A stretch of 64,000 bases of DNA from Candidatus Lustribacter sp. (GCA_965277805.1 OZ255842.1:960001-1024000), one strand, 5' to 3'. Counted from the first letter of the stretch, positions 1 to 16,838 are shown. Made by a program: numbers and translations. The notes: a model not told the origin generated them from the letters alone.

Positions 1-657
1 GGTGTCGGCGGGATCAGCAACTCGTACGAACCGGCGAATGCGAACGCGGTGATCGGCCGCCGCATGGACTTCGTCTGGGGCAAACGCGAGATGGAAGAGA
101 CGATCGAAAACGTTCGTTTCCGCGTCTCGCCGGCGTCCTTCTTCCAGATCAACGGTGCTATGGTGGCGTCGATCTTTCGCGCGCTCGCACCGCTGATCGC
201 GGGCACGCCGCGCATCGTCGACCTCTATTGCGGGGCCGGGACGTTCGCGATCTACTTCGCCTCGCGCGGCGCCTCCGTCGTCGGGATCGAAGAGAACGCG
301 TCGGCCGTAACCGAAGCGCGCGGCAACGCTCGCCTCAACAAAGTCGAAGACCGCGTGCGATTCGTGCAGGGCCGCGTCGAGGGCGCGCTCGCGAACGAAG
401 AAGGCCGCAAGGCATTGCGTGAGGCCGAGATCGTGTTCTTGGATCCGCCGCGCAAGGGCAGCGACGAGGCGACGCTGGCCGCGCTTGCCGATGCGAAGGT
501 GCCGGCGATTTGGTATCTCTCGTGCAATCCGGCGACCTTGGCGCGCGACTTGCGTTACCTCGCCGGCCGCGGTTACGGCATCGGTTTGGTCCAGCCGTTC
601 GATATGTTCCCGCAAACGGGGCACGTCGAGACGCTGGTGACGCTCACTCGAAAATGA
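1..657 (+). CDS. rlmD: 23S rRNA (uracil-5)-methyltransferase RlmD/TrmA family, C-terminal part (truncated at window start)
   Basis: Frame open from base 1; motifs SFFQIN, DLYCGAG, LDPPRKG, YLSCNPATLARD, DMFPQTGHVE. Confidence 0.9.
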   Translation, partial: GVGGISNSYEPANANAVIGRRMDFVWGKREMEETIENVRFRVSPASFFQINGAMVASIFRALAPLIAGTPRIVDLYCGAGTFAIYFASRGASVVGIEENASAVTEARGNARLNKVEDRVRFVQGRVEGALANEEGRKALREAEIVFLDPPRKGSDEATLAALADAKVPAIWYLSCNPATLARDLRYLAGRGYGIGLVQPFDMFPQTGHVETLVTLTRK

Positions 658-1114
658 CGTCGTAAGCGAACGTCATGCGCCCGCCGGGCACAAGCGGTGC
701 CGGCGCGCTCCAGCGAATCGCATCGAATTCCGACGGCAGTGCGCGGCGCAGCGTCGTGGCGCCCCCGGGATTCGTCACGCGCACCATCGGCGCGGCGGCC
801 CACGTTTTGCCGCCGTCGACCGAATACTCGGCGTTTGAACCGGCCGTACCGTCGACGTAGCGTTCACCGGCCGGAATCTTGACGACCGGTGAGAGGTTCG
901 CCGCGGGGCGGTCGCCGGCGTTGTGTGCTACGATCGTGTAGCGCACGCGCTGGCCGGGTTTGGTGATACCGCTCACCGGCTTTGATACGAGATTGCCGCT
1001 TTGCGCTTCAATCAACGATGCCGACTGCACGAGTTCGACGAGCGCAGCTGCGCGTGCCGCGCAGGGAATCAACCCGAACATTAAGGCGGCGAACGCAATC
1101 GCTATCGATTTCAC
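644..1114 (-). CDS. Small secreted DUF11 (conserved repeat, Ig-like) domain protein
   Basis: Signal peptide; PGQRVRYTIVAHNAG...IPAG.RYV...IRW...LVPGG..TFAYDV pattern; divergent from the larger DUF11 genes. Confidence 0.75.
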   Translation of the reverse strand: MKSIAIAFAALMFGLIPCAARAAALVELVQSASLIEAQSGNLVSKPVSGITKPGQRVRYTIVAHNAGDRPAANLSPVVKIPAGERYVDGTAGSNAEYSVDGGKTWAAAPMVRVTNPGGATTLRRALPSEFDAIRWSAPAPLVPGGRMTFAYDVIFE

Positions 1115-1156
1115 TGCAACTTGTTTCCGCGATTAACGCTCGCGTTCTTTTGCAAC

Positions 1157-1185
1157 GTGGCACGTGCCACCGGACTTTACGTAAA
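1157..1185. promoter_or_regulatory. Two perfect palindromes in the divergent promoter region (possible operators)
   Basis: GTGGCACGTGCCAC at 1157-1170 and TTTACGTAAA at 1176-1185. Confidence 0.35.
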
Positions 1186-1299
1186 CCATGCATTCGTTTG
1201 CTTTGAATAGGGTGGACAAGCGAGTGCTGGTCACCTAGCATAGCCGAGTGCCCGAATGCTCGATGCATCTCAGGCGCGCGATTCACGGAGGAGTCCTGG

Positions 1300-3723
1300 T
1301 TGACGGCGTTTTTACGTCGTCGAGTTTATGTTGTTCTCGCGATCGCTTGTATCGCGATGCTCTTCGTCTTTGCCGGCGAGACCGTCGCGCGAGCCGCGAC
1401 GGCAGCCGGCACGACGATCAACAATTCAGCGAGCGCGACCTATGTCGACCCCGCCGTTCCAGGAACGACTCTTTCAACGACGTCGAACGTCGTTACCATC
1501 CGCGTTGCGGAAGTCGCGGGCATCACCGTCGTAGCGCACGCGATCGGCGCGGTCGGCGGCGGCGTGATCGTGCCGGGCGGACAGGTGAACTTCGACTTCA
1601 CCGTCACCAACACGGGCAACAACACCAATAGCTTCTCGATTCCCAACACCGCGCTCGTCAGCGGCACGGCCGGTTCGACAATTGTCGGAACGCCGCAGAT
1701 CAGTTACGACAACGGCGTGACGTGGACGCCGCTCGCGACCGCCGCCGGAACGTTCAGCGGCAGCGGCACCACCGCGCGTCTGCAGACGACGCCGATCGCG
1801 CCCAACGGCACGGTGCTCGTACGCATCGTCACGAGCGTTCCGGCCGGTGCGACGCAGTCGTCGACGATCAACGTACAGCTCGGCAATACGGGGCCGAACG
1901 ACAACAGCGCCGCGACGCAAAATCAGAATTACAACGCGGGCGACGCGGGCAACGTCTTCACGACCAACAACGCCGGGACGCCGCCGCCGGGGCCGCCGCT
2001 CAACGGTCAGCGCGAAGCGGCCGCGCTCTCGTCCACGACCGTCACCGCGCGGCCGCAGGCGTTCGCCCAGATCCTCAAGAGCGGCGCGATCGCAACCGCC
2101 AATATCAACCCGCAACTGAGCACGGTCACCTACTCGCTCACGCTCAACGTGCTCGCGAGCTACCCGAGCGCCGGGCCGGCCTATATCGCCGCGCCGTTGA
2201 CCGGAACGCCGATCTTGCTCAATGGTGCCGCCGCTACGCGCGTGCTCGTTTCCGACGTCGTGCCGGCGCAAACGGTGCTGAGCGCGGTCGCGACGCCGCC
2301 GCCGGGCTGGACCGTCATCTACTCGACCGACATCACCAGCGTTGCGAACGTCGCATCGTTCACGAGCACCGCGCCGCCGAGTTTGAGTACGGTGAAACGC
2401 ATCGGCTGGATCGCGCCCGGACCGGTTCCGCTCGGCGCGTCGGTCACGGGATTCAACTTCACCGTTCTCGCGAGCGGCGTTCCGTCCAACGCGTCGAGCA
2501 CGCTGCTCAACTTGGCGCAAGTGTTCGGTCAATCGCAGGGCGATGCGACGAATCTGCTGGTCTACGATCAGTCCGGCGATCAGGAACCGAGCCAATTCAC
2601 GGCCGGTAACGGCACGCCCGGTTCGAGCACGCCGCTCGGCACGGCGCCGTCGAACGGCGTTGCCCCGGCATCCGGACCCAACGATCCGGGCGCGAATACC
2701 GGCGGCGCCGGCGGCGACAACAACGTCGTCCCGCTCAACCCGCAGACCTCGCTCGTCAACGGACCCAACGGCGTGCCGGGCGCGGTCGGTTCCGACGGCA
2801 CGACGACGACCGACGTCACGTATCAGTCGGTGACGGTGCCGCAGGGTTTGGCGCCGGCATCCGGGCTGCCTAGCCCGCTCCAATCGACGTTCACCAATAG
2901 CGTCGGCAACCAGGGCACGGTGCCGCTCCAAAACGTGACGCTCGTGCCGCAATCACCGGCCGTCGCAAACGCGCTGCCCAACGGCACGACGGCGGCGATC
3001 TCGTGGGGCGGTCAGTCCGTTCCGGCGCTCTACACCTACACGGCATCCGGCGGCTGGGTGCTCACGAGCGGAACCGCGATCTCGATACCCACGATCGCGG
3101 CGAGCGGCGTACAGAACTACACCGTCGTCGTCACGCTGCCGGCGGGCACCGCGCAATCGACCAACGGCGGCGTCGCAGCCGGCGGATTCGGGATCCCGAT
3201 CCTGGCTGCGTCGACCACCGGCTTTGGTGCGAGCTCGAACCTCACGACCGATACCGTCTTCACCGGCTTCGTCAAGCTCACGAAACTCGCGCAGGTGTTC
3301 AACGCCGACGGCTCGCCGTGCGACGTCGCGCCGGTGGCCGCACCGAATCCGGCGTGCGTCGTCGCCGGTAATTTCGTGCAATACACGATCCAGTACTCGA
3401 ACATCATCCCGGCGGCGAGCGGTAGCGGCAGTTCCGCGCCGAGCGCGCTGCGGATGGTGATCACCGAGGACGGCGCCGCGGCTCCCAACACGTTCGCGAC
3501 GCTGCTCGACGGCGTGGTCGTGACCAGTCACGTCAAGGGTTCTGCGACGGATACGCTCGCGGCTAACGTCATTACGTTCTTCAACGCGGTTGGGCAGAAC
3601 GTCGGCGACATCGCGGGCAGCGGCACCGCGACGGGCGACGTGACGAAGTACATCGACACGTTCGCCGCGCCGCTCGCGCCGGGCGCAACCGGCACGTTCA
3701 CCTTCAAGCGGAAGATCAACTGA
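1300..3723 (+). CDS. Secreted multi-DUF11/Ig-like protein, candidate major pilin-like subunit
   Basis: GGAG RBS and TTG start; signal peptide; N-terminal GTTINNSASATY strand; repeated FxFTVTNTGN, LK...TYSL...DVVP...NLAQ motifs; ends TFTFKRKIN. Confidence 0.75.
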   Translation: MTAFLRRRVYVVLAIACIAMLFVFAGETVARAATAAGTTINNSASATYVDPAVPGTTLSTTSNVVTIRVAEVAGITVVAHAIGAVGGGVIVPGGQVNFDFTVTNTGNNTNSFSIPNTALVSGTAGSTIVGTPQISYDNGVTWTPLATAAGTFSGSGTTARLQTTPIAPNGTVLVRIVTSVPAGATQSSTINVQLGNTGPNDNSAATQNQNYNAGDAGNVFTTNNAGTPPPGPPLNGQREAAALSSTTVTARPQAFAQILKSGAIATANINPQLSTVTYSLTLNVLASYPSAGPAYIAAPLTGTPILLNGAAATRVLVSDVVPAQTVLSAVATPPPGWTVIYSTDITSVANVASFTSTAPPSLSTVKRIGWIAPGPVPLGASVTGFNFTVLASGVPSNASSTLLNLAQVFGQSQGDATNLLVYDQSGDQEPSQFTAGNGTPGSSTPLGTAPSNGVAPASGPNDPGANTGGAGGDNNVVPLNPQTSLVNGPNGVPGAVGSDGTTTTDVTYQSVTVPQGLAPASGLPSPLQSTFTNSVGNQGTVPLQNVTLVPQSPAVANALPNGTTAAISWGGQSVPALYTYTASGGWVLTSGTAISIPTIAASGVQNYTVVVTLPAGTAQSTNGGVAAGGFGIPILAASTTGFGASSNLTTDTVFTGFVKLTKLAQVFNADGSPCDVAPVAAPNPACVVAGNFVQYTIQYSNIIPAASGSGSSAPSALRMVITEDGAAAPNTFATLLDGVVVTSHVKGSATDTLAANVITFFNAVGQNVGDIAGSGTATGDVTKYIDTFAAPLAPGATGTFTFKRKIN

Positions 3724-5159
3724 TGGCGCGCATCGTTCGCAGCGCGCTGGCGCTGATCGCCGCTCTCACGCTCGCAACGGCCGCACCGTTCGTGGTCTCG
3801 GCCGCGCCGACGCTGGTCAATGCCGCTTCGGCTTCGTACGATCCCGGCAACGGGACGCTCGTGCAAGTGCAGTCGCCGAGCACGCTGACGCAGGCGAACC
3901 CCTCGCTGACCGTCACCTCCGCGATCACCGCGTGTCAGGGCGGACCGCTCACCGATTACACCGGCTGGAGCATCGGGCTCTACAACGCCGATGCGCTGGG
4001 CAATCCCACCACGGCGCTCGCGCTGACGCGCACACAGCTGCCGGTGTTGCCGGCGGTTCCGCTGCCGGCCGGCATCGCGCCGAACAACCAGAACCTCGAC
4101 CCGTTCACGGTGACGAACGGTAACGTCGGGATCTACGCGTTCCTGCTCGACACTGCGACCGGCGAAACGGCACCGCAAACGTTCGTCTTGATCACCAACG
4201 CACCGGCGACGTCGTCGCTGCCGAAGCGCCGCGTCAAGATCGTGCTCGGCGCGACCACCGGCGCAAATGTGGCGTATACCGCGACCGCGCTCGACAATAT
4301 GGCCGTCAATGCCCTCTCGCCGGCGCAAACGGTCACCGGCACGTTCCCCATCGTGCGCACGAGCGCGAACGGAAACTTCGCGGTCTTCCAGCTCGCCGTG
4401 AGCGAGTGCCCGAGCAACGCCATCGGCATCACCAAGACGGCGAACGTCACGACGGCGCAGGTCGGCGATACGGTCGTCTATTCGGTTGCGGTCACGAACC
4501 AGTCGCTGAGCGCGATCACGGCGCCGACGATCACCGACATTCTGCCGCTCGGTTTCGTCTACGTCAACGGCTCCGTCCGCGCCGGCCTTGCGAATTCGGC
4601 CGTGCCGGCGACCGCGACCGTCGCTGGCGGCCGTCTCGTGATGACGACCACGGCCTCGATTCCCGCGGCGTCGGTGCTGACGTTCGTCTACGCGACGGTG
4701 CTCTCACCCGACGCTCTCAAGGGCACGGGGCAGAACGTCGCCGTCGCCGACGGCACGCTCGGCTCATCACCCGTGCACGGCGGGCCCGCGACGTTCACGC
4801 TCAAGGTCGATCCCGGCTTGTTGAGCGACTGCGGCACGATCATCGGCCGCGTGTACGTCGACAAGCCGCTGCAGGGCATCGACCGGCGTCAACAGCCCGG
4901 CGTTCCGGATGCGGTCGTGTTCTTCGACGACGGCGTGCGGGTGAAGACCGACAAGAACGGGCTCTATCACTATCCGGGCTGCGCGCATCCGGGCTGGCGC
5001 ACGGCGGCGCTCGATCTCACCAGCGTGCCGGGGATGACGCTCGCGCCGAACATCTACATCGCGGCGCGCAACGGCCAATCGCAGTGGGCACATCTCGAGC
5101 CGAGCGGTTTGGTGAAGATCAACTTCGCCGTCGTGCCGGCCAAGGGCGCCGCGAAGTGA
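3723..5159 (+). CDS. Secreted DUF11-domain protein with C-terminal SdrD/CnaB-like domain
   Basis: Signal peptide; ITKTANVTTAQVGDTVVYSVAVTN...TDILPLGF...NVA; IIGRVYVDK...GVP...TDKNGLY; TGATG coupling to previous gene. Confidence 0.75.
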   Translation: MARIVRSALALIAALTLATAAPFVVSAAPTLVNAASASYDPGNGTLVQVQSPSTLTQANPSLTVTSAITACQGGPLTDYTGWSIGLYNADALGNPTTALALTRTQLPVLPAVPLPAGIAPNNQNLDPFTVTNGNVGIYAFLLDTATGETAPQTFVLITNAPATSSLPKRRVKIVLGATTGANVAYTATALDNMAVNALSPAQTVTGTFPIVRTSANGNFAVFQLAVSECPSNAIGITKTANVTTAQVGDTVVYSVAVTNQSLSAITAPTITDILPLGFVYVNGSVRAGLANSAVPATATVAGGRLVMTTTASIPAASVLTFVYATVLSPDALKGTGQNVAVADGTLGSSPVHGGPATFTLKVDPGLLSDCGTIIGRVYVDKPLQGIDRRQQPGVPDAVVFFDDGVRVKTDKNGLYHYPGCAHPGWRTAALDLTSVPGMTLAPNIYIAARNGQSQWAHLEPSGLVKINFAVVPAKGAAK

Positions 5160-8100
5160 CGCCGTTTACGCGGCGCAGCCTCGCGCTGATTGCCATGCTT
5201 TCGCTCGCGCCCGTGGCGTTCGCGCGCGCCGCGGACAACCCGCCGGCGGCCGGTGTCGCGCTGGTTGCGGCCGCACCGCTGATTGTCGAACCGGCCACCG
5301 GTTCCGTGTTGGACAAACCGTCGACCGACGTCGTCGTGCGATCGGCGCCCGGCGATAAGGTGCAGTTGATGGTCAACGGCGTCGCCGTCAAAGACGATCA
5401 GATCGGTGTCCTCGGACGTGCCGATGACGGCAGCCAGGTTGAAACGTGGATCGGCGTGTCGCTCGATTCCGGCCGCAACGTCATCAGCGCGCGCGTCGAT
5501 CGCGGCACGGGCGCGTCCGCTCCGGTCGAGAGCATCGTGAACGTTCGCGGCAGTGCGAAGAAGCTGGTGCTGAAGGCGAGCCGTATGTCGGCGCCGGCTG
5601 ACGGCCGCACGAACATCTCGATCAGCGGTCAGCTGATGGACGGCAACAACCTGCTCGCCGCGCGCGACGGCATGGTGCGCCTGGCCGCGACCGCGGGCGA
5701 CTTCGTCGGCGATAGCGCGCAACCCGAAATGCCGGGCTTCTACGTGCGAGCCCATGACGGGCAATTCAACGCCGTCCTGCGCGCGCCGCTGCATTCGGGC
5801 ACGGCCCACATCACGGCGTCGATGGCGAACCTCACGGCGACGCTCGACCTCGAGATGACGACGGAACTGCGCCCGAGCATCGCGACCGGCGTAGTCGACC
5901 TGCGCTTCGGCGCGCGTCAGTCGGACTTCTACAAAAGCATCTCGACGTTCTTAGACGGCGATCCGAGTTTCAAACCGGAACTGCAGACGTCTGTCTTTGC
6001 CACCGGGAAGGTCGGCAACTACCTGCTCACAGTGGCCGGCGACAACCTTTATCCGATCAACCCGCCGTGCGACGGCCGGATCGGCGTCACCACGTACGAA
6101 CAACAAGCCGCCTGCACCCCGCAGTACCCGATCTACGGCGATGAGTCGACGTCGACGCGTCTCGCGCAGTCTAGCGACAACGTGTTCTTCCGGCTCGAGC
6201 GCGAGCGGACGTACGCGATGTGGGGCGACTACGACACCAAAGAGTGGGCGTCGGCCACGCAGCTCTATTCGGCAACGCAGATGAACCTGCACGGCGCCAA
6301 GCTCAACTACGAGCCCGGCAAACTCGAAATCGCGAGCTTCTACGCCAACAACATCCAGGCGTTCCAGCGCGATTCGATCGCACCCGACGGCACGAGCGGC
6401 TACTACTACCTCTCGCACCAGCTGGTCGTTCCGGGCAGTGAAACCGTGTTCGTCGAGGCGCATCTCTTCAATCAGCCCGGCGTCATCGAAACGGTCACGC
6501 CCTACGTGCGCGGCATCGGCTACGACATCGACTACGATAACGGCCAGATCTTGTTCCACAACCCGATCGTGCGCACCGACATCGACCCGCAAGGCCGTGT
6601 GATCGTCAACGTGATCGTTGCGACGTACGAATACGACGGCGGTCAAGGTTCGGGCGACATGGTAGGTGGGCGCGTGCGCTACCGTTCGTTCATTCCGCAA
6701 AACGATACGCAGACGCCGTTCTCGATCGGCGCATCGGTCGTGCACGAGAACATGGGCGACGCGTCGTTCACGCTCAACGGCGTCGACGCCGGCGCGCCGC
6801 TCGGCAAGATCGGAAAGCTGATCGCAGAGTACGCGCAATCGAGTAACGACGCGAGCGCGTCGGGCGCGGTCACCGGCAATGCCTATCGCCTCGAGGCCGC
6901 ACTGCAGTCCGGGAAGACGACCGGTAACGCGTACTACCGCACCACGACCGCCGGGTTCTCGAACAACGCGACCACGAGCTTCACGCCCGGCGAAACGCAG
7001 CAAGGCCTGAACTTCGATACGCCGGTAGCCCATCACACGAGCGCGTTCCTCACTTATGATCGCGAACGCGAGAACGGCATCGCGCCGGAAGTCCTCACCG
7101 ATCCGGAAGATCTGCTGCTGCCCGGCAACGCGCAGGTTCCGGGCGCGCCGGTCAACACCGACTACATGACGCTCGGCGGCGGCGTACGGCAACTGATCGG
7201 CACGGGCAAGCTTTCGCTCGAATATGACGTGCACGAGCAGACCGACTTCAACGAGCCGCTGGTCGACACCAATTCCTCGCAGCTCATCGCGCGCTACTTG
7301 CAGCCGTTCGGCAAACGCTTCACCTTCTTGGCCGAAGACGACATCAATCTGCGCTCGCAGGTCGATCCCTTGTATCCCAGCCGCTTCGCGCTCGGCCTCG
7401 AGTACAGCGTGGCTCCGGGCGTTGCCGTCGCCGCGACCCATCAATACATGAAAGACTTGCAGAGCGGACCGCAGACCTTCAACACGATCGAAGCCATGGC
7501 CGATGACAAACTCGACGCGAACACGTCGTTCACCGGGCGCTATGCGATTCTCGGCGGCCTCGACGGGTACGATGCGACGAGCGCCTTCGGCCTCAAGCAT
7601 CTGTTCAGGATCGCGAAGGGCGTGAGCGCGAGCGCGGCCTACGAATACCTCAACGGCAGCGTCTTCGATCTCACGCCGTCCGGCATGCAGTTCGCACAGC
7701 CCTACGCGGTCGGCCAGCAAGGTACGACGGCGCTCGGGATCAGCGGCGGTACGAGCCTCAGCCTCAGCACGACCTATGCCGGCAGCCAGTACCTCAAGGG
7801 CTCGGCACGCTACGAGCACCGCGTCTCCGACCAGGGTTCGAATACGACGTACAGTTTCGGCGGCGCGGGCAAGCTCTCCGACGCGGTGTCGCTCTTGGCG
7901 GGCTTCGATTCCGCCGGCGGCGCCAATCAAACCTTGGGCGGGCTCGCGGCCAGTTCCGATTTCCGCGTTGGTGCCGCCTATCGCAATCCATACACAGATA
8001 CGACGAACGCGCTCTTGCGCTACGAGATCGACGTCAATCCGGGCATCACGCCGGCCACATTGCTGCAAGGCGCGGGCACCTGGACGAAAGACAATACGCT

Positions 8101-8557
8101 CGCGCTTGAAGTGCTGCACGACCCCTCGCAACGGCTCGAACTCTACGGCAAGTTCGCCTTCCGCGCAACGACGGCGTATCTGTCGGGTGATTTCTCCAAT
8201 GCCACGTACACGTCGCTTGCGCAGGCGCGCGCTACGTACCGCGTCGGACGGCGCTGGGATACGACGTTAGAATTGCGCTGGATCGCGCAGAACGTCACCT
8301 ACTACAGCGCCATCGGTGAAGTGGCCGAAGCCGGTTACGCGTTCGGTGACGATCTGCGCGGCGCGATCGGCTGGTCGTTTGGCCAGACCAACGATCCGGC
8401 GTTCTTCGGCTCAAACGGCCGCGGCGGCATCTACTTCGACGTCACCGCGCGTATTCACGAACTGTGGCCGGGCTTCGGCCTGCAGAAGGCGCCGCTCGCC
8501 GATCTCACCGCTACCGGCGTTCCCGCCGCAGCCGCCGTACCTGTGGGGCGCAAGTGA
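5156..8557 (+). CDS. Large secreted protein: N-terminal Ig-like domains plus probable outer-membrane beta-barrel
   Basis: GTG at 5156 overlaps the upstream stop; signal peptide; C-terminal part is alternating aromatic/Gly amphipathic strands ending GGIYFDVTAR; GYDIDYDNGQILF motif. Confidence 0.65.
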   Translation: MTPFTRRSLALIAMLSLAPVAFARAADNPPAAGVALVAAAPLIVEPATGSVLDKPSTDVVVRSAPGDKVQLMVNGVAVKDDQIGVLGRADDGSQVETWIGVSLDSGRNVISARVDRGTGASAPVESIVNVRGSAKKLVLKASRMSAPADGRTNISISGQLMDGNNLLAARDGMVRLAATAGDFVGDSAQPEMPGFYVRAHDGQFNAVLRAPLHSGTAHITASMANLTATLDLEMTTELRPSIATGVVDLRFGARQSDFYKSISTFLDGDPSFKPELQTSVFATGKVGNYLLTVAGDNLYPINPPCDGRIGVTTYEQQAACTPQYPIYGDESTSTRLAQSSDNVFFRLERERTYAMWGDYDTKEWASATQLYSATQMNLHGAKLNYEPGKLEIASFYANNIQAFQRDSIAPDGTSGYYYLSHQLVVPGSETVFVEAHLFNQPGVIETVTPYVRGIGYDIDYDNGQILFHNPIVRTDIDPQGRVIVNVIVATYEYDGGQGSGDMVGGRVRYRSFIPQNDTQTPFSIGASVVHENMGDASFTLNGVDAGAPLGKIGKLIAEYAQSSNDASASGAVTGNAYRLEAALQSGKTTGNAYYRTTTAGFSNNATTSFTPGETQQGLNFDTPVAHHTSAFLTYDRERENGIAPEVLTDPEDLLLPGNAQVPGAPVNTDYMTLGGGVRQLIGTGKLSLEYDVHEQTDFNEPLVDTNSSQLIARYLQPFGKRFTFLAEDDINLRSQVDPLYPSRFALGLEYSVAPGVAVAATHQYMKDLQSGPQTFNTIEAMADDKLDANTSFTGRYAILGGLDGYDATSAFGLKHLFRIAKGVSASAAYEYLNGSVFDLTPSGMQFAQPYAVGQQGTTALGISGGTSLSLSTTYAGSQYLKGSARYEHRVSDQGSNTTYSFGGAGKLSDAVSLLAGFDSAGGANQTLGGLAASSDFRVGAAYRNPYTDTTNALLRYEIDVNPGITPATLLQGAGTWTKDNTLALEVLHDPSQRLELYGKFAFRATTAYLSGDFSNATYTSLAQARATYRVGRRWDTTLELRWIAQNVTYYSAIGEVAEAGYAFGDDLRGAIGWSFGQTNDPAFFGSNGRGGIYFDVTARIHELWPGFGLQKAPLADLTATGVPAAAAVPVGRK

Positions 8558-11500
8558 AACTCCGCCGCGTTTTCACGGCCTTACTCGTGCTCGTCCTTTT
8601 CGGCTCGATGCTGCAACGGCCGCTACCCGCGCTCGCCGCACCGCCGTTGCTCGACGTGATCACGCTCGATCCGCTCGCTGCGGGCTCGAGCGGGCAAACG
8701 GGCACAGTTCCGTTTGATGCGACCTCGTTCAACCCGGGCGGTGGAACAAATCCGGGCACCGATAGTTCGGCGACCGATCACATCGTGCGCACCAACGACA
8801 CGATCGCTTACGATTTTCAGTACAGCGTCAACAGCGCGCCCGGACTCAACATCACGCTGACCAGCGTCCTTGGCCAGTACCTCGGCGCCGACGTCGCTGA
8901 CTGGACGACCATCCCGGCCGGATGCGGCGCCGGTTCATCGATCAGCGGCGACGGGCAAACGCTCGTGTGCGACATCGGGGCCGTTGCACAGGGCAGCGCG
9001 CAAGACGTGATCGCTTCGGCGAAGATCCGCGTCACCGCACCCAACGGCGCGACGATCGCGCCGAGCATCACGGTCGATGACCCGGGCAACGTTGGCACGG
9101 TTCCCGTGACCAACGCCGGCTATTGGATCAACCAGTCGACGCCGTCGACGACGACGATGGACACGATCACGTCGGTCGGCAAGTACAATGCGATGAAGCA
9201 GTCAGCGGTCGCGAAGCCCGTCATCGAGCCGTACACCTACTTCGGTGACGGCGGCGTGCAAGGGTACTACATCGATTTCCCGGTCCTCGTTCGCGAGGGC
9301 GACGGTACGGCCGGCGGCAAGTACGGCATCGCGCCGGCGGGCTCGCCGATCACGATCACCGATACCCTCTCGCCCGGCCTCAACTCGACCCTTGCCCTGA
9401 GCAATGCGTGCGGCATCAACGGCAGCGGGATCACGATCCAGAACGAGCCCTACGGCGCGATCGGCGTCACCGGAAGCGCCACCTCCGCCAACAGCGTCGT
9501 GAATTCTGGAACGATCACGTGCACGCAGGCCGGCGGTGCCGGAACCCCCGTGACGATTACGATCACCGGTGCCAACACCAGCGGCTCATCGTTCCCGGTG
9601 AACAAGGCCGGCAGCGCGGGCATCGACAACCTCACCTACGTCGTCGCGGGCTACCTGCGCCTCTGGGTTCCCGACACGACCGGAAACCTCGGCGCGACCG
9701 GCAACGTGCAAGGTTTCTCCGACACGTATACGGGCATCGACCCGGGCGAACCGGACGAGCTTCCGGCCAATCTCACCGCAACGACGAACCTGACGGCCGA
9801 AGGCCCGGCGGGCGCGAGCGGTAACGGCGGCAAGGCATTCTTCCAAACGACGAGCGAGAACGGGTTCCCGTTCAACAACTCCAACGGACCGGCGCTGACC
9901 GCGGGCAGCCCGCTCGTCTCGGTGTTCGAATTCAACAACACCTCGAGCGCGTCGACGGGCTCGGTGACGATCAATAGTCTCACCGCGTGCGACACGATCG
10001 ACACGGCCCACATCTTGGTCACGCCGTTCAGCGGAGCGGCCGGATTTGCGACCGACTCGCTGTGGGGCGGCGCGGTTCACCTTTCGAACCTGAACGGGGG
10101 ATCGTTCACCGATGGTTCGCCGCCGGCCGGGTTCACCGTTTCTTACGGCGATTCGAGCACCGCGGCCGATTGCACGACCGGAACGTTCAAGGCGTCGGCA
10201 AGCGATGCATCGTTCACCGCGCTCAACCCGATCGCGCGCGTGAAGTTCACGATGACGTCGCTCGCTCCCGGGCAAGAGTTGCGCGTGCAGCTGTCTCAGA
10301 CCGTCAACTCGGGTCTGGCTGCCGGTACGATCGTACACAATACCGTAACGGCAACCGGGACGGCGAGCACCGGCGGGCCGGCGTTCTCGCGCACGGCGTC
10401 GACCACCGGTCAGATCTTCACGACGAACCTCGGCATCACGAAGTACCTCTTCAAAAACGTTGCGGGCGCCGGGGTGTTCAATGCGAACGGCACGCAACCA
10501 CCGGGCGCGAGCGGCCGTTCGTCGGGCACCGCCGGTCTGGTGGATACCAATCAGGAGATCGTCGCGGCGCTCGACGATGACGGATCGCAAGGCACGCTGC
10601 CGTCGAGCAACGTCGTAACGTGCGACATCGTGCCGCCGAACATGTCGATCAAAGACTTCGATCTGGTCACGAACACGACGCCGGTAACGGGACCGGTCAC
10701 GTTCCTGACGGTCAGCGGAACCGCGCCGTCGTCGGAACTCGTGGAATATTCCACGGTGCCGACCTTCGGCGGCGACTCGTGTACCGATGCGGGCGGCGGC
10801 TGGACGTCGACGGAGCCTTCACCGCGCAGCGCGATCACCCGCGTTCGCGTGACCTACACGTTGCCGGCCGAAACGCGCGAACGTATCTTCGTGAACTTCC
10901 AAGTCGCATCGTCCGCGGCTCCGAACACGCTGATCACCAACAATACCGTCACGACCGTCGGCGGCGTGAACCTGCAAACTGCAACGCAGAGCGTAACGGT
11001 TGAACCCGAAACGGTCTCAGTAACGAAGACCGGCCCGAGCGGCTCGGTGACGGCGGGTACGCCCGCATCGTTCACGATCCAAGGATACGTGCAGGGCCCG
11101 GGATCGCCGCAATCGGGTACGGTGACGGTCGTCGATACGCTGCCCGTCGGCCTCACCTACGTGCCGAGCTCGACCGTGCTCACGAACCCGCCCGCGCCGA
11201 CCACCTGGCAGAGCGGCAGCGATAATGCCACGCCGGTGATCACGATGAGCGGACCGAATCAAGTCTTGACCTGGACGCTCGGCACCGCGACCGCCAATCC
11301 GGGCGTGTTCATCCAATTGCCGACGATCACGTTCTCGACCAATACCGACATTTCACTGAGCGGCGGAACGCTGATGAACTCGGCCACGATCGTCGATACG
11401 GCTGACGGCAATCCCGGCGGGCCTAATCACACGGCCACCGCGTCGGTGCTGGTCTCCAATCCGGGCGCGTTCCATATTTCGAAGACGACGACGACGCCGC

Positions 11501-12426
11501 AAATCAACACCGGCGGCACGATCACGTGGCAGTTGAACTACGCCAACACGGGAACGACCGCGGCGACATCGACCGACTTCATCGACATCCTGCCCTACTC
11601 GGGCGACACGCGCGGCAGCAGCTTCCACGGAACGATCACGCTCGTGTCGGCAGCGGGCACCAACGGCGAAACGCTGCAGTACACGAAGCAGCCGCCAGCG
11701 CAAATCAACGAGGATCCGGGCTGCACGTCCAACGGCGGCGTCGTGACGCCGCCGACCGGTGGCTGTCAGAGCTTCAGCGCCGCGACCTGGTGCCCGGCGC
11801 TGAGCGGCGGCGCGTGTCCGTCAACGCTCGCGCAAGTGACGGCGATTCGGATCGGCGGCGGCGCGTTGCCGGGACCGTCCGGAACGCGCACGATCACCGT
11901 GCAGGCGAGCACGAGCGGTAACGTCTTTACCGATGTGTACTGGAACACGTTCGGCGCCCGAACGAGCATCTTGACCCTCGGCGTGCATTCGCCGCCGGTC
12001 GAGACGATCGTGCCGACGCCGCCGACGGCATTCCTCACGCTCGTGAAGTCGTGCCTCGCGCCGCCGACCTGCATCACCGCATCCCAAGCGCCGGGAACCG
12101 ACATTACCTACGGCATCTCCGCGACCAACACCGGCGGCCACGCATCGGCGCAAGTGGTGATCACCGATCCGATGCCGCCGAACATGGACTTCAAACTCGG
12201 CACGGCGTCGGCCACGTTCCCGGGCGGCGTGACGATCGTGATCTCCTATAGTTCCGATCCGGCATTGTCCACGTTCACGTACGCGCCGGTCAGCGGCGGC
12301 GGCGGCGCGGCGACGGGATACGATCGCAACGTCACCGGCGTGCGCTGGACGATGACGGCCGGGCAACTTGCTGCCGTCGGCGTGAACGATTCCGGCAGCG
12401 TCCAATTCACGGCGGCAATTCGATGA
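8554..12426 (+). CDS. Large Cys-rich multi-DUF11 surface protein, candidate tip adhesin
   Basis: GTG at 8554 overlaps the upstream stop; signal peptide; tandem VTK/ISK...D(T/I)LP...N-x-A domains; paired cysteines; ends SVQFTAAIR. Confidence 0.75.
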   Translation: MKLRRVFTALLVLVLFGSMLQRPLPALAAPPLLDVITLDPLAAGSSGQTGTVPFDATSFNPGGGTNPGTDSSATDHIVRTNDTIAYDFQYSVNSAPGLNITLTSVLGQYLGADVADWTTIPAGCGAGSSISGDGQTLVCDIGAVAQGSAQDVIASAKIRVTAPNGATIAPSITVDDPGNVGTVPVTNAGYWINQSTPSTTTMDTITSVGKYNAMKQSAVAKPVIEPYTYFGDGGVQGYYIDFPVLVREGDGTAGGKYGIAPAGSPITITDTLSPGLNSTLALSNACGINGSGITIQNEPYGAIGVTGSATSANSVVNSGTITCTQAGGAGTPVTITITGANTSGSSFPVNKAGSAGIDNLTYVVAGYLRLWVPDTTGNLGATGNVQGFSDTYTGIDPGEPDELPANLTATTNLTAEGPAGASGNGGKAFFQTTSENGFPFNNSNGPALTAGSPLVSVFEFNNTSSASTGSVTINSLTACDTIDTAHILVTPFSGAAGFATDSLWGGAVHLSNLNGGSFTDGSPPAGFTVSYGDSSTAADCTTGTFKASASDASFTALNPIARVKFTMTSLAPGQELRVQLSQTVNSGLAAGTIVHNTVTATGTASTGGPAFSRTASTTGQIFTTNLGITKYLFKNVAGAGVFNANGTQPPGASGRSSGTAGLVDTNQEIVAALDDDGSQGTLPSSNVVTCDIVPPNMSIKDFDLVTNTTPVTGPVTFLTVSGTAPSSELVEYSTVPTFGGDSCTDAGGGWTSTEPSPRSAITRVRVTYTLPAETRERIFVNFQVASSAAPNTLITNNTVTTVGGVNLQTATQSVTVEPETVSVTKTGPSGSVTAGTPASFTIQGYVQGPGSPQSGTVTVVDTLPVGLTYVPSSTVLTNPPAPTTWQSGSDNATPVITMSGPNQVLTWTLGTATANPGVFIQLPTITFSTNTDISLSGGTLMNSATIVDTADGNPGGPNHTATASVLVSNPGAFHISKTTTTPQINTGGTITWQLNYANTGTTAATSTDFIDILPYSGDTRGSSFHGTITLVSAAGTNGETLQYTKQPPAQINEDPGCTSNGGVVTPPTGGCQSFSAATWCPALSGGACPSTLAQVTAIRIGGGALPGPSGTRTITVQASTSGNVFTDVYWNTFGARTSILTLGVHSPPVETIVPTPPTAFLTLVKSCLAPPTCITASQAPGTDITYGISATNTGGHASAQVVITDPMPPNMDFKLGTASATFPGGVTIVISYSSDPALSTFTYAPVSGGGGAATGYDRNVTGVRWTMTAGQLAAVGVNDSGSVQFTAAIR

Positions 12427-13478
12427 ATCGCATACAACGGGTCTTGATCGTTCTCGGCGCAAGCGCCGCGCTCGCAGCGTGCGGCGGCGGCGGTAACACG
12501 TCGTCGTTCGGCGGCACGACGTTCACCGTCTCCGGATCGGGCGGCCCGGCCCCGGCGCCGACCGCGACGCCGATTCCCGGACCGGTCACGGTGACCGGAA
12601 CGATAACGCAAATTACGAACACCAGCTTTGGCCCCACCGCACCCCAGTTGCCGCTCGGCGGTGCGGTGGTCGTCATCGGTCCGGCGCTCGTGCCCGGTGC
12701 AACGCCGCCGCCGGTTCCGCCGGCCGGCGACGTGCAGGTAACGACGTCGGCGAACGGCACGTACAGCGCGACGCTGGCGTCCGGTCCCGCACCCTCGTTG
12801 TCCGCGCAAGCCTCGTACGATTTTCCCTTGAACAATCTCGCGGGCGTGACGCCGCCGGCAAGCGGTTATTACATCAGCGTGTTCGCAGCGGGCAGCGACG
12901 GCAAAACTGCCGGCGCGCCGCTGCCGGTGCACGCATTTTCGGGACTCGGTGCCGGCAACGTTCTCGCGACGCAACGCGTGACGACGGCGACGCCCGATGA
13001 AGCGAACTTCCTCGCGCTCGTCAACACCGATCGCACGACGGCGAACCCGCTCGCGCTGCCGATGATCTTCGATGAGTACGCGGAGGAAGCAGCGCGCCTG
13101 CACGCCACCGACGAAGCGACGAACAACTACTACTGCCACTACGATACGCAGAACCGCGGCCCCGGTTCGCGCTATCTTGCGCTGCTGGCCCTCGGGCAAG
13201 ACAACGAGAACATCGGCAAGACCTCCGGCACCGATGCGGTTGGTTCGTACACCGTCACCGAAGCCGCGTTCATGGCGGAATCTTCGACGAACGGCGGCCA
13301 CTACACGAACATCATCGATTCGACGCACGCTTGGGCCGGTGTCTCGACGGTCGTGGCCGGCCCCTCCGCGCAGTACGTCGACCAGGAATTCGTGTCGCCG
13401 CACGGCACCGACCCCTACGTCTACCCGAATTTCACCGGCTCCGCGTGCCCGCCCGGCGTGGTCCCGAACAACTCGTAG
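12423..13478 (+). CDS. Lipoprotein with C-terminal CAP/SCP-like domain
   Basis: Lipobox LAACGGG; LVNTDR...AARLHA...HYD...ENIG...GHYTNII CAP signature. Confidence 0.75.
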   Translation: MNRIQRVLIVLGASAALAACGGGGNTSSFGGTTFTVSGSGGPAPAPTATPIPGPVTVTGTITQITNTSFGPTAPQLPLGGAVVVIGPALVPGATPPPVPPAGDVQVTTSANGTYSATLASGPAPSLSAQASYDFPLNNLAGVTPPASGYYISVFAAGSDGKTAGAPLPVHAFSGLGAGNVLATQRVTTATPDEANFLALVNTDRTTANPLALPMIFDEYAEEAARLHATDEATNNYYCHYDTQNRGPGSRYLALLALGQDNENIGKTSGTDAVGSYTVTEAAFMAESSTNGGHYTNIIDSTHAWAGVSTVVAGPSAQYVDQEFVSPHGTDPYVYPNFTGSACPPGVVPNNS

Positions 13479-13528
13479 ATTCCCCCGTACGGGGACGGTG
13501 ACGGCCCTTTATCGAAATAGCTGGGGTT

Positions 13529-13825
13529 ATGGCCACGGAACGGATCGATGTGCGCGGGGTCGCGCGTTTGGCGCGGCTCGCGCTCAGTGACGAAGAGATC
13601 GAGCGCTACGGCGCGCAGCTCGAGGACCTGCTCAAGCACGTCGACGACCTCAAGCAACTGGACACCTCCGACGTCGCGGCGACCGCGCAGGTTATCGAGT
13701 CGCGCAACGTCATGCGTCCCGATGTCCTCGCGCCGTGCCTCGATCACGATGCCGTGATGGCCGGCGCGCCGCAGCCGCAGCACGGCTTTTTTCGCGTCCC
13801 GAAGATCATCGCCGAGGCCGGTTGA
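13529..13825 (+). CDS. gatC: Asp/Glu-tRNA amidotransferase subunit C
   Basis: VARLARL...FRVPKII; directly upstream of gatA. Confidence 0.95.
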   Translation: MATERIDVRGVARLARLALSDEEIERYGAQLEDLLKHVDDLKQLDTSDVAATAQVIESRNVMRPDVLAPCLDHDAVMAGAPQPQHGFFRVPKIIAEAG

Positions 13826-15318
13826 TGGATCCGGTTCGCGCTTCCGCCCGCGAGATCGCGCGCGCGGTCAATGCCCGTGAAATTTCGGCGGCCGAAATCG
13901 CCGAGACGATGATCCCGCACGTCGCCTCCGTCGACGAGCATCTCGGCGCGTACCTGACGCTCACGCCCGAGCTGATGCGCGAAAGCGCACGCAAGGTCGA
14001 CGCGCGCATCGCGGCTGGCGAATCGCTGCCGCTGGCCGGGGTGCCCGCCGCGATCAAAGACAACATGTGCCTGCTCGGCACGCGCACCACGTGCGCCTCG
14101 AAAATTCTCGAGCAGTGGATCGCGCCGTACACCGGCACGGCCGTTGCGCGTCTGCTCGACGCGGGTGCCTTGCCGATCGGTAAGACGAACATGGATGAGT
14201 TCGCGATGGGCAGCTCGGGTGAAAACTCGGCGCTCGGCACGACGAAAAACCCGTACGACTTCGACCGCGTTCCCGGCGGCTCGTCGGCCGGCAGTGCGGC
14301 AGCCGTGGGCGGCTACGTGGCGACGATTTCCACCGGCAGCGATACCGGCGGTTCGATTCGCGAACCGGCGGCGTTCTGCAACGTCGTCGGGTTCAAGCCG
14401 ACCTACGGGCGCGTTTCGCGCTACGGATTGATCGCGTTTGCCTCGAGCCTGGATCAGATCGGGCCGTTCGCGCGCACCGTGGAAGATGCGGCGCTGACGT
14501 ACGACGCAATGGGCGGTCACGACGCGATGGACGCGACCAGCGTCGACATGCCGTTCGAGACGACCGCCGGCCACCTGCGCGAAGATCTGCGCGGCGTGCG
14601 CGTCGGCATCGTCAAGGAATTCGCCACCTCCGATCTCGCACCGGACGTTGCCGCAGCGTACGAAGCGGCCTATGCCGATCTCGCAAAGCTCGGCGCCGAA
14701 CTGGTCGAGGTCGAGTTGCCGACGGCCAAGTACGGCCTCTCGACGTACTATCTCATCGCGCCGGCCGAATGCTCGTCGAACCTCGCGCGCTTCGACGGCG
14801 TGCGCTACGGCCTGCGCGTCGACGGCGCCGACGTCGGCGAGATGTATGAGAAGACGCGCGCCGCGGGCTTCGGCCCCGAGGTGAAGCGCCGGATCCTCAT
14901 CGGCACCTATGCGCTTTCGAGCGGCTACTACGACGCGTACTACGTCAAGGCGCAGAAAGCACGCACGCGCATCGCCGACGATTTTCGGCGCGCGTTCGCA
15001 AAGTGCGACGTCATCGCATCGCCCGCTGCGTCCTCACCCGCGTTCACCTTCAACGCCAAGAGCGATCCCTACAGCATGTACCTGATGGACTATTACACGA
15101 TCCCCGTCTCACTCGCCGGCCTGCCGTCGCTCTCGATCCCATGTGGCTCCGCACTGCCCGAAGGCGGCTCGCGCCCGATGCCGCTCGGCCTGCAACTCGC
15201 GAGCCCGCTCTTCACCGAACGCGCCCTCCTCGGCTACGCCCACGCCTACGAACGCGCGACGCAACACGCGACGAAGTTGACCGTATGTCATCCCGAGCTT
15301 GTCGAGGGATCGCGATAA
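13825..15318 (+). CDS. gatA: Asp/Glu-tRNA amidotransferase subunit A
   Basis: Amidase signature IKDN, GKTNMDEFAMGSS, GGSSAGS, GSDTGGSIR, SNLARFDGVRYG; ATG at 13825 overlaps the gatC stop. Confidence 0.96.
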   Translation: MDPVRASAREIARAVNAREISAAEIAETMIPHVASVDEHLGAYLTLTPELMRESARKVDARIAAGESLPLAGVPAAIKDNMCLLGTRTTCASKILEQWIAPYTGTAVARLLDAGALPIGKTNMDEFAMGSSGENSALGTTKNPYDFDRVPGGSSAGSAAAVGGYVATISTGSDTGGSIREPAAFCNVVGFKPTYGRVSRYGLIAFASSLDQIGPFARTVEDAALTYDAMGGHDAMDATSVDMPFETTAGHLREDLRGVRVGIVKEFATSDLAPDVAAAYEAAYADLAKLGAELVEVELPTAKYGLSTYYLIAPAECSSNLARFDGVRYGLRVDGADVGEMYEKTRAAGFGPEVKRRILIGTYALSSGYYDAYYVKAQKARTRIADDFRRAFAKCDVIASPAASSPAFTFNAKSDPYSMYLMDYYTIPVSLAGLPSLSIPCGSALPEGGSRPMPLGLQLASPLFTERALLGYAHAYERATQHATKLTVCHPELVEGSR

Positions 15319-15360
15319 TGGCGACGACTGAGGCGGCCCTTCGACAAGCTCAGGGTGACA
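15286..15360. repeat. Inverted pair of REP-like palindromes (REPIN-like doublet) spanning the gatA/gatB junction
   Basis: TGTCATCCCGAGCTTGTCGAGGGA (15286-15309) and CCCTTCGACAAGCTCAGGGTGACA (15337-15360). Confidence 0.85.
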
Positions 15361-16838
15361 CGGGGCGCGCGGCACTTCGGGAAAAATACGAAGCGGTTAT
15401 TGGGATCGAGTGTCACGTTGAACTGAAGACCGTCAGCAAGATGTTCTGCGGCTGCGCGAACGAGTTCGGCGGGGAACCGAATACCAAAGTGTGTCCGGTG
15501 TGTTTGGCGCTGCCCGGTGCGTTGCCGGTGCCCAATGCGAAGGCGATCGAGCTGATGATCGCGGCGGGGCTCGCGTTCGACGCGGAGATTCCGGCGTTTT
15601 CGAAGTTCGACCGGAAGAACTACTTCTATCCGGACATGCCCAAGAACTATCAGATCTCGCAGTTCGACATGCCGCTCACGCAGGGCGGCGTGGTGCACTA
15701 TTGGCTGCCGGACGGCACGAAGAAGTCATGCCGCCTCACGCGCATCCATCTCGAAGAAGATACCGGTAAGTCGACGCACGCGGGTTCGGGTGACGGCCGC
15801 ATCGCCGGCTCGTCGTACTCGCTGGTCGACTTCAACCGCGCCGGCGTGCCGTTGATGGAGTGCGTCGGCGAACCGGACATCCGTTCGGCCGAAGAAGCCG
15901 TCGGCTATCTCGAGGCGCTCAAACGCACCTTCGTCGAGCTCGGCGTCTCCGACGTCAAGATGGAAGAAGGATCGCTGCGCTGCGATGCCAACGTGTCGGT
16001 CCGCTTGCGCGGCGCGGCCGAATACGGCACGAAGGCCGAGATCAAGAACATGAACTCGTTTCGCAGCGTGCACGATGCGATCGAGAGCGAGATCGACCGT
16101 CAGATCTCGGTGATCGAGGGCGGCGGCCGCGTGATCCAGGAGACGCGCGGCTGGGACGAAGCGGCCGGCGTGACGCATTCGATGCGCTCCAAAGAACAAG
16201 CGCACGACTACCGCTACTTCCCCGAGCCCGATCTCGTGCCGTTGGAAATCGACCGCAGCGTGATCGAGCGCATCCGCGCGTCGATGCCGCCGGTGCCGTT
16301 CGAACGCTTCGAGCGCTATACCGAAAAATTCGGGATATCGGTGAAGCAGACGACGCAGCTGGTCGACAACCCGCCGCTGGCGGCGTATTTCGATAAGGTC
16401 GTGGCGGTGACCAACGCACCCGCGGCAACCCTGAACTTCGTGTTAGGCGATCTTTCGCGCATGGCCAACGAAAGCGGCACGCCGGTCTCGCAGGGGAACG
16501 TGACGCCCGAAGCGCTGGCCGAGCTGATCGCGCTCACCGAAGCGAAGACGATCAACTCCAAGATCGCGAAGGACGTGCTCGCGCGGCTCTGGGCCGACGG
16601 CGGTTCGGCGAAGGCAATCGTGGAGGCCGAGGGCCTGGCGCAAGTGTCCGATCCCGGTGCGATTGCGCAGTTCGTCGACGACGTGCTCGCCGCGAACGCC
16701 GAGAGCGTGACGCAATTCAAAGCGGGCAAGGAGAACGTGCTGAAGTTTCTCGTGGGTCAGGTGATGAAGACGAGCCGCGGTAAAGCCAATCCCGAACTCG
16801 TCGAGACGCTCTTGCGGGAGAAGATCGCGGCGCGCTGA
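15318..16838 (+). CDS. gatB: Asp/Glu-tRNA amidotransferase subunit B
   Basis: YEAVIGIECHVEL, FDRKNYFYPDMPKNYQISQ, RIHLEEDTGK, DYRYFPEPDL; ATG at 15318 overlaps the gatA stop. Confidence 0.96.
   Translation: MATTEAALRQAQGDTGRAALREKYEAVIGIECHVELKTVSKMFCGCANEFGGEPNTKVCPVCLALPGALPVPNAKAIELMIAAGLAFDAEIPAFSKFDRKNYFYPDMPKNYQISQFDMPLTQGGVVHYWLPDGTKKSCRLTRIHLEEDTGKSTHAGSGDGRIAGSSYSLVDFNRAGVPLMECVGEPDIRSAEEAVGYLEALKRTFVELGVSDVKMEEGSLRCDANVSVRLRGAAEYGTKAEIKNMNSFRSVHDAIESEIDRQISVIEGGGRVIQETRGWDEAAGVTHSMRSKEQAHDYRYFPEPDLVPLEIDRSVIERIRASMPPVPFERFERYTEKFGISVKQTTQLVDNPPLAAYFDKVVAVTNAPAATLNFVLGDLSRMANESGTPVSQGNVTPEALAELIALTEAKTINSKIAKDVLARLWADGGSAKAIVEAEGLAQVSDPGAIAQFVDDVLAANAESVTQFKAGKENVLKFLVGQVMKTSRGKANPELVETLLREKIAAR

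Follow-up and report, generated by a model that had tools for sequence, protein, structure and literature searches.

How could large secreted proteins that end in an unfinished immunoglobulin-like (Ig-like) domain be joined into a fibre at the cell surface, where genes for neither a sortase nor a pilus chaperone are found? This question is raised by a cluster of six genes at positions 644–13478 of a 64,000-nucleotide stretch of DNA from Candidatus Lustribacter sp. (GCA_965277805.1 OZ255842.1:960001-1024000), the whole of which we call the window; it lies within a 5.53-Mb single-contig genome that is 95% complete. Sequence comparison and predicted structures, by which the locus is known here, make it probable on balance that the cluster specifies a fibre at the cell surface that follows a split-domain principle, in which the last domain of one protein would be completed by two N-terminal strands of the next, with a probable isopeptide lock at the joints and an outer-membrane barrel as the anchor.

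A preliminary description of this DNA had claimed five translationally coupled genes of secreted proteins plus one divergent gene, and the coordinates, overlaps and leaders agree with it. Same-strand neighbours among the five genes at 1300–13478 overlap by 1, 4, 4 and 4 nt, and a hydrophobic leader is present at the N-terminus of all six products (6/6). From which half of the split domain each protein carries follow the roles, proposed in the preliminary description, of shaft (807 aa; 1300–3723, plus strand), base (478 aa; 3723–5159, plus strand) and tip (1290 aa; 8554–12426, plus strand). The gene of a predicted outer-membrane barrel protein (1133 aa; 5156–8557, plus strand) lies between base and tip. 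The other two products are a CAP/YkwD-type lipoprotein (351 aa; 12423–13478, plus strand) and a small secreted protein of 156 aa, encoded divergently (644–1114, minus strand).

A conserved split in the terminal domains

We observed that the shaft (ending in TFTFKRKIN), the tip (VQFTAAIR) and the 156-aa protein (TFAYDVIFE) stop directly at the point where the Asn strand would normally follow. The last domain of the tip (residues ~1158–1290; 12025–12423, plus strand) covers only positions 10–55 of the 114-position DUF11 profile. That the C-terminal domains of the 807-aa and ~1290-aa proteins end before the Asn strand had been proposed earlier, and the chain ends, the profile coverage and the ends of the homologues all bear it out. 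We found 182 shaft homologues at E ≤ 1e-3 and counted conservation in an alignment of 66 of them, of which 61 end exactly at the N807 column. The shaft acceptor domain (residues 655–807; 3262–3720, plus strand) carries a Lys, K662 (codon 3283–3285), kept in 65 of the 66 homologues, and a Glu, E723 (codon 3466–3468), kept in 64. The corresponding residues of the tip are K1165 (codon 12046–12048) and D1205 (codon 12166–12168). These acceptor domains are single-copy in the genome.

A candidate for the missing part stands at the mature N-termini of the shaft (..TINNSASATYVDP..TSNVVTIRV) and of the base (..TLVNAASASYDPG..). An orphan Asn strand had been noted at both places. The Asn is indeed conserved (N42 in the shaft, N33 in the base), whereas the view of a single strand did not hold, as the putative donor is made of two strands. 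The shaft donor segment spans residues 34–72 (1399–1515, plus strand; N42 codon 1423–1425) and that of the base residues 28–66 (3804–3920, plus strand; N33 codon 3819–3821), and the two are homologous to each other (hhalign probability 96%, E 3.7e-9). Conservation in the shaft donor is nearly complete (N42 in 65/66, A44 in 66/66, Y48 in 64/66, S62 in 66/66 and N63 in 66/66), and N33 and A35 of the base donor are present in 22 of 22 homologues. No acceptor domain is present in the base, and neither a donor segment nor its motif in the tip. The donor/acceptor pattern was thus kept in homologous clusters, a point that the preliminary description had proposed to check: it holds in the 66 shaft and 22 base homologues, which are mostly cyanobacterial, and also in two loci of cyanobacteria whose genes follow the same order. 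All named shaft homologues are cyanobacterial, at 35–43% identity. At the level of these comparisons, we take the split and its conservation as shown, and they go far past what would be expected by chance.

Two smaller features of the acceptors were also seen. The last residue is conserved, being Asn in 60 of the 66 shafts (an R-K-I-N end; N807 is at 3718–3720), while most tip-type domains end in [KR]-I-R. A pair of Cys residues stands in the loop after the Lys strand of both acceptors (C678...C689 in the shaft, 3334–3369; KSC...C in the tip, 12052–12072), and each pair could form a disulfide.

Two conserved residues, one in each half of the split domain, also appear to be lost together. We re-aligned the 120 shaft homologues that were listed out of the 182; 118 of these include the N-terminus, and N42, K662 and E/D723 are all present in 116 of the 118. 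Only P0022 (D42, N662, R723) and P0030 (S42, Q662, E723) are without N42, and the same two are the only ones without K662. Both proteins are 798 aa long and retain N63 and N807. The joint loss of two residues that are 620 positions apart argues that they act together, and in these two proteins we may be seeing a fibre variant that naturally lacks the covalent bond.

Domains inside the chains of shaft, base and tip carry a full triad. The shaft consists of the leader, the donor, three Ig-like domains and the acceptor, and its middle domain matches PF25546 (DUF7925, CnaA-like) at residues 256–432 (E 9e-45), with a triad of K260, D319 and N404 inside the match. The base comprises the leader, the donor, an intact DUF11 domain (230–362) and a C-terminal SdrD_B-like domain (~368–470); it matches DUF11 (PF01345, above cut-off, E 1.6e-8) and TIGR01451 (E 7.6e-13), its triad K238, D272 and N338 is invariant in 22 of 22 homologues, and homologues of the base carry PF17210. 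In the tip, the leader is followed by a stretch of about 600 residues with no family matches, by DUF11/CnaA-type domains and by the terminal acceptor. Residues 821–946 match TIGR04226, an RrgB-type isopeptide domain (E 2e-11), with the triad K823/D861/N942 inside, and PF01345 is above cut-off in this protein also, with a match at 1175–1219. The earlier reading of these internal domains as DUF11-type, with a Lys, a D-x-[LV]-P motif and an Asn, stood as a pattern. A strict N-x-A in the last strand did not: it occurs in three of the five domains, while tip domain ITK628 has N-x-V and tip domain ISK975 has N-x-F.

DUF11, since renamed CLIPPER, and DUF7925 are CnaA-like domains with a predicted or demonstrated intramolecular Lys–Asn isopeptide bond that is catalysed by Asp, and the seed of DUF7925 was a Nostoc protein of the shaft family (Q8YS00; K264, D326, N415), according to the accessible passages of PMC12617251. 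Structure comparison places the shaft in the same company. Its AlphaFold2 (AF2) model has a mean predicted local distance difference test score (pLDDT) of 85.8 and a predicted template modelling score (pTM) of 0.51. Residues ~251–481 of the model resemble BcpA, SpaD and the CLIPPER structure 9ifr (Z 9.7–9.9, root mean square deviation (rmsd) 2.6–2.9, 122–129 residues aligned; for 9ifr alone, Z 9.7, rmsd 2.6 and 122 residues). A sequence profile search of the PDB returned nothing for the shaft. Whole-model Foldseek searches with the shaft and the barrel protein gave TM values of about 0.2, as expected of multi-domain chains, and the ESM Atlas returned automatic names only (TonB-dependent receptor, outer membrane protein, DUF11 protein). 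On its domain content, the system is a member of the CLIPPER/DUF7925 domain superfamily, in which one domain per subunit appears to be split between chains.

Predicted strand insertion and its alternatives

We folded shaft residues 630–807 together with shaft residues 33–240, the latter including the donor's own first domain, with alignments for both partners and with three controls. The interface score ipSAE was 0.87, 0.87 and 0.89 for the shaft acceptor with the shaft donor, and 0.00, 0.51 and 0.00 for the controls. In calibration, 58 of 80 solved complexes and 2 of 110 mismatched pairs scored this high, a yardstick that is rough here because a custom alignment was used. At least 94% of the contacts were common to the runs, and the partner pLDDT was at least 88. 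Both N-terminal strands (38–52 and 58–70) entered the open C-terminal domain despite the presence of the donor's own first domain in the chain. It had been asked beforehand whether the N-terminal strand would pack within its own chain; in the prediction, the strands went into the C-terminal domain of the other one.

The predicted interface comprises donor residues 33–35, 38–52, 54, 58, 60–70 and 72 and acceptor residues 655–664, 680–699, 712–725, 729–732 and 806–807. Donor strand 44–49 pairs with 716–722, the strand carrying E723; donor residues 61–63 sit on 660–662, the strand carrying K662; and N42 touches residues 730/731. The contacts of 806–807 with the donor involve the conserved end of the chain. 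The insertion of a shaft donor into a shaft acceptor is therefore a model-supported result, and we consider donor–acceptor complementation as such to be well supported in silico and very probable.

Such insertion supports the reading of the preliminary description and would lead to the following scheme. As acceptor, the tip or the shaft would offer a C-terminal Ig-like domain of CLIPPER/DUF11 type that lacks its last two strands, and these strands, including the bond-forming Asn, would be supplied by the mature N-terminus of the next protein, either shaft or base. After Sec export, the N-terminus of a shaft would complete the open domain of the tip, the open domain of each shaft would be completed by the next shaft, and the base, having a donor and no acceptor, would terminate the chain. 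The product would be a beads-on-a-string fibre, like a tandem-repeat adhesin that is cut once per subunit in a loop. Insertion would bring N42 of the donor beside E723 and K662 of the acceptor, and a Lys–Asn isopeptide would probably form spontaneously, with release of NH3, and lock each joint. The barrel of about 40 strands with its two Ig-like domains would serve as the outer-membrane anchor and probably as the passage, and the 156-aa acceptor-type domain, which has no triad, may reversibly cap donor strands before assembly. Beyond the modelled strand insertion, we infer that subunits join in trans and in the order given, that a covalent bond forms, how the fibre is exported and what the small protein does. 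A fibre formed by joining in trans, as a tip–shaft(n)–base chain, appears likely to us. The covalent K662–N42 lock we favour by a little, and it gains support from the co-loss of N42 and K662.

Several observations weigh against this scheme. Taken alone, the donor segments (48–49 aa) gave no DUF11 match against Pfam at E ≤ 10, our own hidden Markov model of the intact base domain did not detect them, and hhalign comparisons of the donors with intact domains were not significant (E 0.16, 0.48 and 0.11; the alignment at E 0.11, itself not significant, places N42 on the N404 strand of DUF7925). The acceptors of shaft and tip are not significantly alike by BLASTP (E 3.7) and weakly alike by hhalign (probability 31%, E 5e-4), where they are co-linear to the last residue. 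In its second donor strand, the base of the window has S-P where cyanobacterial bases have S-N. P0022 and P0030 list the same longest contig (12601), so that their co-loss may go back to one event shared by two paralogues. One of the three folding controls reached the ipSAE of 0.51, and the low-error contact listed for K662 is S62, not N42. The fragment fold covers the shaft–shaft pair only and cannot separate insertion in cis from insertion in trans, and the AF2 shaft monomer, at pTM 0.51, forms the N-terminal strands with a pLDDT of 67–77, which is compatible with a fold-back in cis. Finally, in a barrel model with a mean pLDDT of 74.6, ushers are matched no better than other barrels (Z 11–12).

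Three rival readings were weighed. One is a donor-strand fibre with no covalent lock, in which Lys, Glu and Asn would only stabilise the fold or the interface. The model supports strand insertion and not the bond itself; moreover, the small protein and the P0022/P0030 shafts are retained without the triad, so that complementation without a bond seems viable, and in the available part of a preprint on BsaA, the N35A mutant still yields oligomers that are stable in sodium dodecyl sulfate (SDS) (PMC11580942). We nevertheless hold an unlocked fibre to be unlikely, since the near-invariance and joint loss of N42, K662 and E723 are the signature of CnaA/CLIPPER isopeptide triads, and within these chains the internal domains retain complete triads, of the kind described in the accessible passages of PMC12617251. 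Closure within one chain is another reading: the N-terminal strands of the shaft would close its own C-terminal domain, perhaps giving a cyclised monomeric adhesin, with pairing of tip and base only and no polymer. The blindness of the fragment fold to cis and trans and the strands formed in the AF2 monomer would both suit such a clasp, and AgI/II adhesins have intramolecular locks of the N-to-C kind (4tsh, among the structure matches listed). It is nevertheless quite improbable in our view. Since the acceptor of the tip comes without a donor, and the donor of the base without an acceptor, these halves must be completed by another chain at least once, and joining in trans would be needed anyway. 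Ring closure would also be strained, as the linkers that join the shaft's domain 1 to the donor and its domain 3 to the acceptor are three residues or fewer and the last strand in tandem CLIPPER arrays would exit opposite the first; and the pTM of the monomer is only 0.51.

The third reading takes the terminal domain for a C-terminal sorting domain of a secretion system of its own kind, read by the giant barrel as the C-terminal domains of the type 9 secretion system are by SprA, with the N-terminal motif unrelated. All 128 full matches have the tip-type domain at the very end, on very diverse passengers, and the barrel aligns with SprA over 500 residues (Z 11.8). As a full account we find this very improbable: no type 9 C-terminal domain family matched any of the six proteins, and a sorting signal alone leaves the donor/acceptor model, the co-loss of N42 and K662 and the donor-only base unexplained. 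A sorting signal and a split-domain fibre are, however, compatible with each other.

Barrel protein, tip-type domain and small protein

The preliminary description had assigned an outer-membrane barrel to the cluster, and the AF2 model of the 1133-aa protein upholds this at the level of the fold. The model (pTM 0.65) has two Ig-like domains at residues 42–235 (5279–5860, plus strand), followed by a very large β-barrel at residues 242–1099 (5879–8452, plus strand). After residue 240 it contains 46 strands, 42 of which have at least seven residues, and 32 of those 42 lie from residue 482 on; a β-rich insert is found at 402–476. The best Foldseek matches of the barrel were SlpA/SDBC, PapC, MtrB, SprA and LptD. 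VIA-align gave FimD (Z 12.4, rmsd 9.7, 332 residues aligned), SprA (rmsd 16.6) and SlpA (Z 11.1, 493 residues aligned), and the fold match to PapC had a Z of 11.5. An usher barrel has 24 strands, whereas about 40 are predicted here. Family scans found only a weak invasin-D3 match, and in a sequence profile search of the PDB only the Ig part (68–236) was matched, to C-terminal Ig-like domains of GH2 proteins. We therefore read the 1133-aa protein, with strong confidence on the strength of the model, as an outer-membrane barrel of unusual size, with about 40 strands and no specific relative. A conduit role is suggested by adjacency, translational coupling and size, and whether the barrel also acts as the exporter seems to us evenly balanced.

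The 146 homologues of the barrel protein are mostly cyanobacterial (35–42% identity) and include one protein from Methylacidiphilales. For several of them the source records give the name TonB-dependent receptor or invasin domain 3-containing, and the homologue of Synechococcus NIES-970 has an added OmpA-like domain. Several barrel and shaft homologues share contig sizes, e.g. 44859, 28457 and 5736946.

A search with the terminal domain of the tip gave 888 representatives at E ≤ 1e-3, 415 of them at E ≤ 1e-10, and we examined the best 150. Of these, 128 reach the end of the domain, and the other 22 are long multi-repeat DUF11 proteins that match the first half only. In every full match (128/128) the protein stops 0–3 residues past the domain, in 106 cases at 0. 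Of the 128, 116 retain K1165 and 125 retain D1205. Two of ten looked-up holders are named as Pyrinomonadaceae, a family of Acidobacteriota. Two of 97 full-length holders are hybrids, P0312 (1704 aa) and P0315 (910 aa), which combine a shaft-type donor N-terminus with a tip-type terminal domain. These link the donor motif to the tip-type acceptor and suggest that the stalk of other lineages uses it.

The 156-aa protein, to which the preliminary description gave no role, has weak DUF11 and TIGR01451 matches in the family scans. Compared with the tip-type terminal domain by hhalign, it aligned to the final residue of both (probability 98.2%, E 3.2e-14). Its homologues were found in L001, a close relative of the locus (see below), and in the loci of Kovacikia (L005) and Synechococcus NIES-970 (L006). 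In L005 (16580–17146) and L006 (16195–16758) the small gene stands between those of shaft and base, with the same orientation; in the window and L001 it is upstream and divergent. Neither the Lys nor the Asp position is conserved across the four sequences. From its recurrence and this alignment, the protein is a conserved fifth component, a free-standing tip-type terminal domain of acceptor type, and we propose it as a candidate non-covalent cap or chaperone for donor strands.

A broader picture would be a widespread class of diderm pili, in which split CLIPPER subunits ligate themselves head to tail through Lys–Asn bonds with no sortase, chaperone or usher, and the fibre passes through a barrel of about 40 strands, formed by one chain, in which it is also rooted; the small domain would be a reversible donor chaperone, and the terminal acceptor a general plug that mounts diverse passengers. 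We put this forward tentatively, rating it at somewhat less than an even chance. The taxa seen are Cyanobacteriota and Eremiobacterota and, by the source names of single proteins, also Acidobacteriota (tip-type domain) and Methylacidiphilales (one barrel homologue).

Known systems, distribution and neighbouring genes

The absence of a sortase, prepilin peptidase or PapD gene from the cluster, as claimed before, was confirmed by family scans of the six proteins. In the whole genome, searches for PF00345 (PapD), PF04203 (sortase) and PF00577 (usher) gave zero matches, while the PF00345 search gave a match in E. coli as a control. There is no terminal LPXTG motif, the sole internal one being LPYSG at tip residue 1013. 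None of the six proteins matched the TasA-type family or the FimA/Mfa families of type V pili, whose subunits are lipoprotein precursors activated by proteolysis, and the shaft, base, barrel, tip and small protein have no lipobox, the CAP protein being the only one that does.

Chaperone–usher pili (Fim, Pap) resemble the proposed fibre in that the tip is an acceptor only, the last subunit cannot accept and the fibre is rooted at an outer-membrane barrel (in the part of PMC11821415 available to us). Here, however, two strands rather than one would be donated, the subunits are multi-domain proteins of 478–1290 aa, the acceptor is of CLIPPER type with a Lys/Glu pair, and no PapD or usher family is found in the locus or genome. 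The completion of a subunit's fold by the N-terminal extension of the next one was found here in the model only, for the shaft donor in the shaft acceptor (ipSAE 0.87 vs 0.51 for the best control), in a fold of another type.

The chemistry is closest to that of BsaA, a TasA-family protein of Clostridium perfringens, for which the available part of the preprint describes an N-terminal segment that inserts into the sheet of the next monomer, followed by an Asn–Lys isopeptide with a Glu of the acceptor as the catalyst (N35, K74, E56; mutants) (PMC11580942). The conservation and co-loss of a donor Asn with an acceptor Glu and Lys fit such a 'donor-strand exchange and lock', and N42 adjoins the E723 strand in the predicted complex. 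BsaA differs in being Gram-positive and single-domain, with a TasA fold and no outer-membrane component, whereas the domains here are Ig-like and of CnaA/CLIPPER type. In archaeal threads (Saci_0406 of Sulfolobus), donor-strand complementation is likewise combined with a proposed intermolecular isopeptide and no sortase, but the bond joins Asn57 to the N-terminal amine of subunit n+2, and the fold is another one, in archaea that have no outer membrane (PMC9715654, as far as available). The system is a member of none of these three classes.

The CLIPPER/DUF7925 fibrillar adhesins (PDB 9IFR) share the domain type and the Lys/Asp/Asn triad. There the triad lies in one chain, as in the internal domains of the present proteins, and only stabilises the domain; in the terminal domain here it is split, with Lys and the acid at the C-terminus and the Asn strand at the N-terminus, so that the same chemistry would join subunits. 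The passages of PMC12617251 that were available, the sole paper found to name DUF7925, treat it as an intramolecular domain and do not mention split domains, donor strands or an operon.

Covalent fibres of CnaA/CnaB-type domains are otherwise built by sortases in Gram-positive pili, and in engineered pairs (isopeptag/pilin-C, SpyTag/SpyCatcher) a CnaA/B domain from which the last strand has been split off spontaneously re-forms and ligates. The present case differs from both, as it has no sortase or LPXTG, the split is natural and the host is presumed to be diderm. A full-text literature search, confined to the main articles, turned up nothing about this operon, split CLIPPER domains or a barrel of this sort; two papers on DUF11 in cyanobacteria (PMC13297417 and bioRxiv 2025.08.19.671072) do not bear on this system. 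No published description of such a pilus system was found.

If the model is right, diderm bacteria would have a further pilus route beside chaperone–usher, type IV, type V and curli, and Gram-negative-type cells would have a covalent, sortase-free counterpart of the Gram-positive pili. It would account for many cyanobacterial proteins named "beta strand repeat-containing", DUF11 or DUF7925, together with mis-named "TonB-dependent receptors". It would also add one of the largest single-chain outer-membrane barrels and supply natural, orthogonal tag/catcher pairs for protein engineering.

The order shaft–small–base–barrel–tip recurs on a plasmid of Synechococcus NIES-970 and on a plasmid of Kovacikia. 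In public data, the nearest relatives of the locus carry the label Vulcanimicrobiota / Candidatus Eremiobacteraeota (shaft identity 88% in L001 and 98% in L002). Among 301 genomes sampled from the phylum, PF25546 was above cut-off in one, which is the window's own genome. The rarity of the system in this phylum and its frequency in cyanobacteria would suggest an old lateral acquisition.

The CAP lipoprotein gene, coupled to the tip gene by the 4-nt overlap, encodes matches to PF00188 (E 4.5e-5) and TIGR02909 (E 8.5e-7) and the lipobox LAAC. A homologue was found in L001, and the gene is absent from the two cyanobacterial loci (none follows the tip gene in L006); judged by this distribution, it is a lineage-specific accessory. 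An apparent 1564-aa fusion of base and barrel in L001 (open reading frame at 12316–17010) was rejected as an artefact of a run of N, as the stop/GTG junction is intact in the DNA.

Upstream of the operon, a consensus scan marked a promoter-like site, TGGACA-17-TAGCAT, at 1213–1241 (plus strand); with three sites found against 1.2 expected, this is weak evidence. No RNA sequencing run with the locus was listed. The locus is flanked by an rRNA-methyltransferase-like gene and gatCAB. By reading the translations, we identified the C-terminus of the former at 1–657 upstream and gatC, gatA and gatB at 13529–16838 downstream. Genes for FlhB-like and FlhA-like flagellar export proteins, identified in the same way, lie further upstream in L001 and L002.

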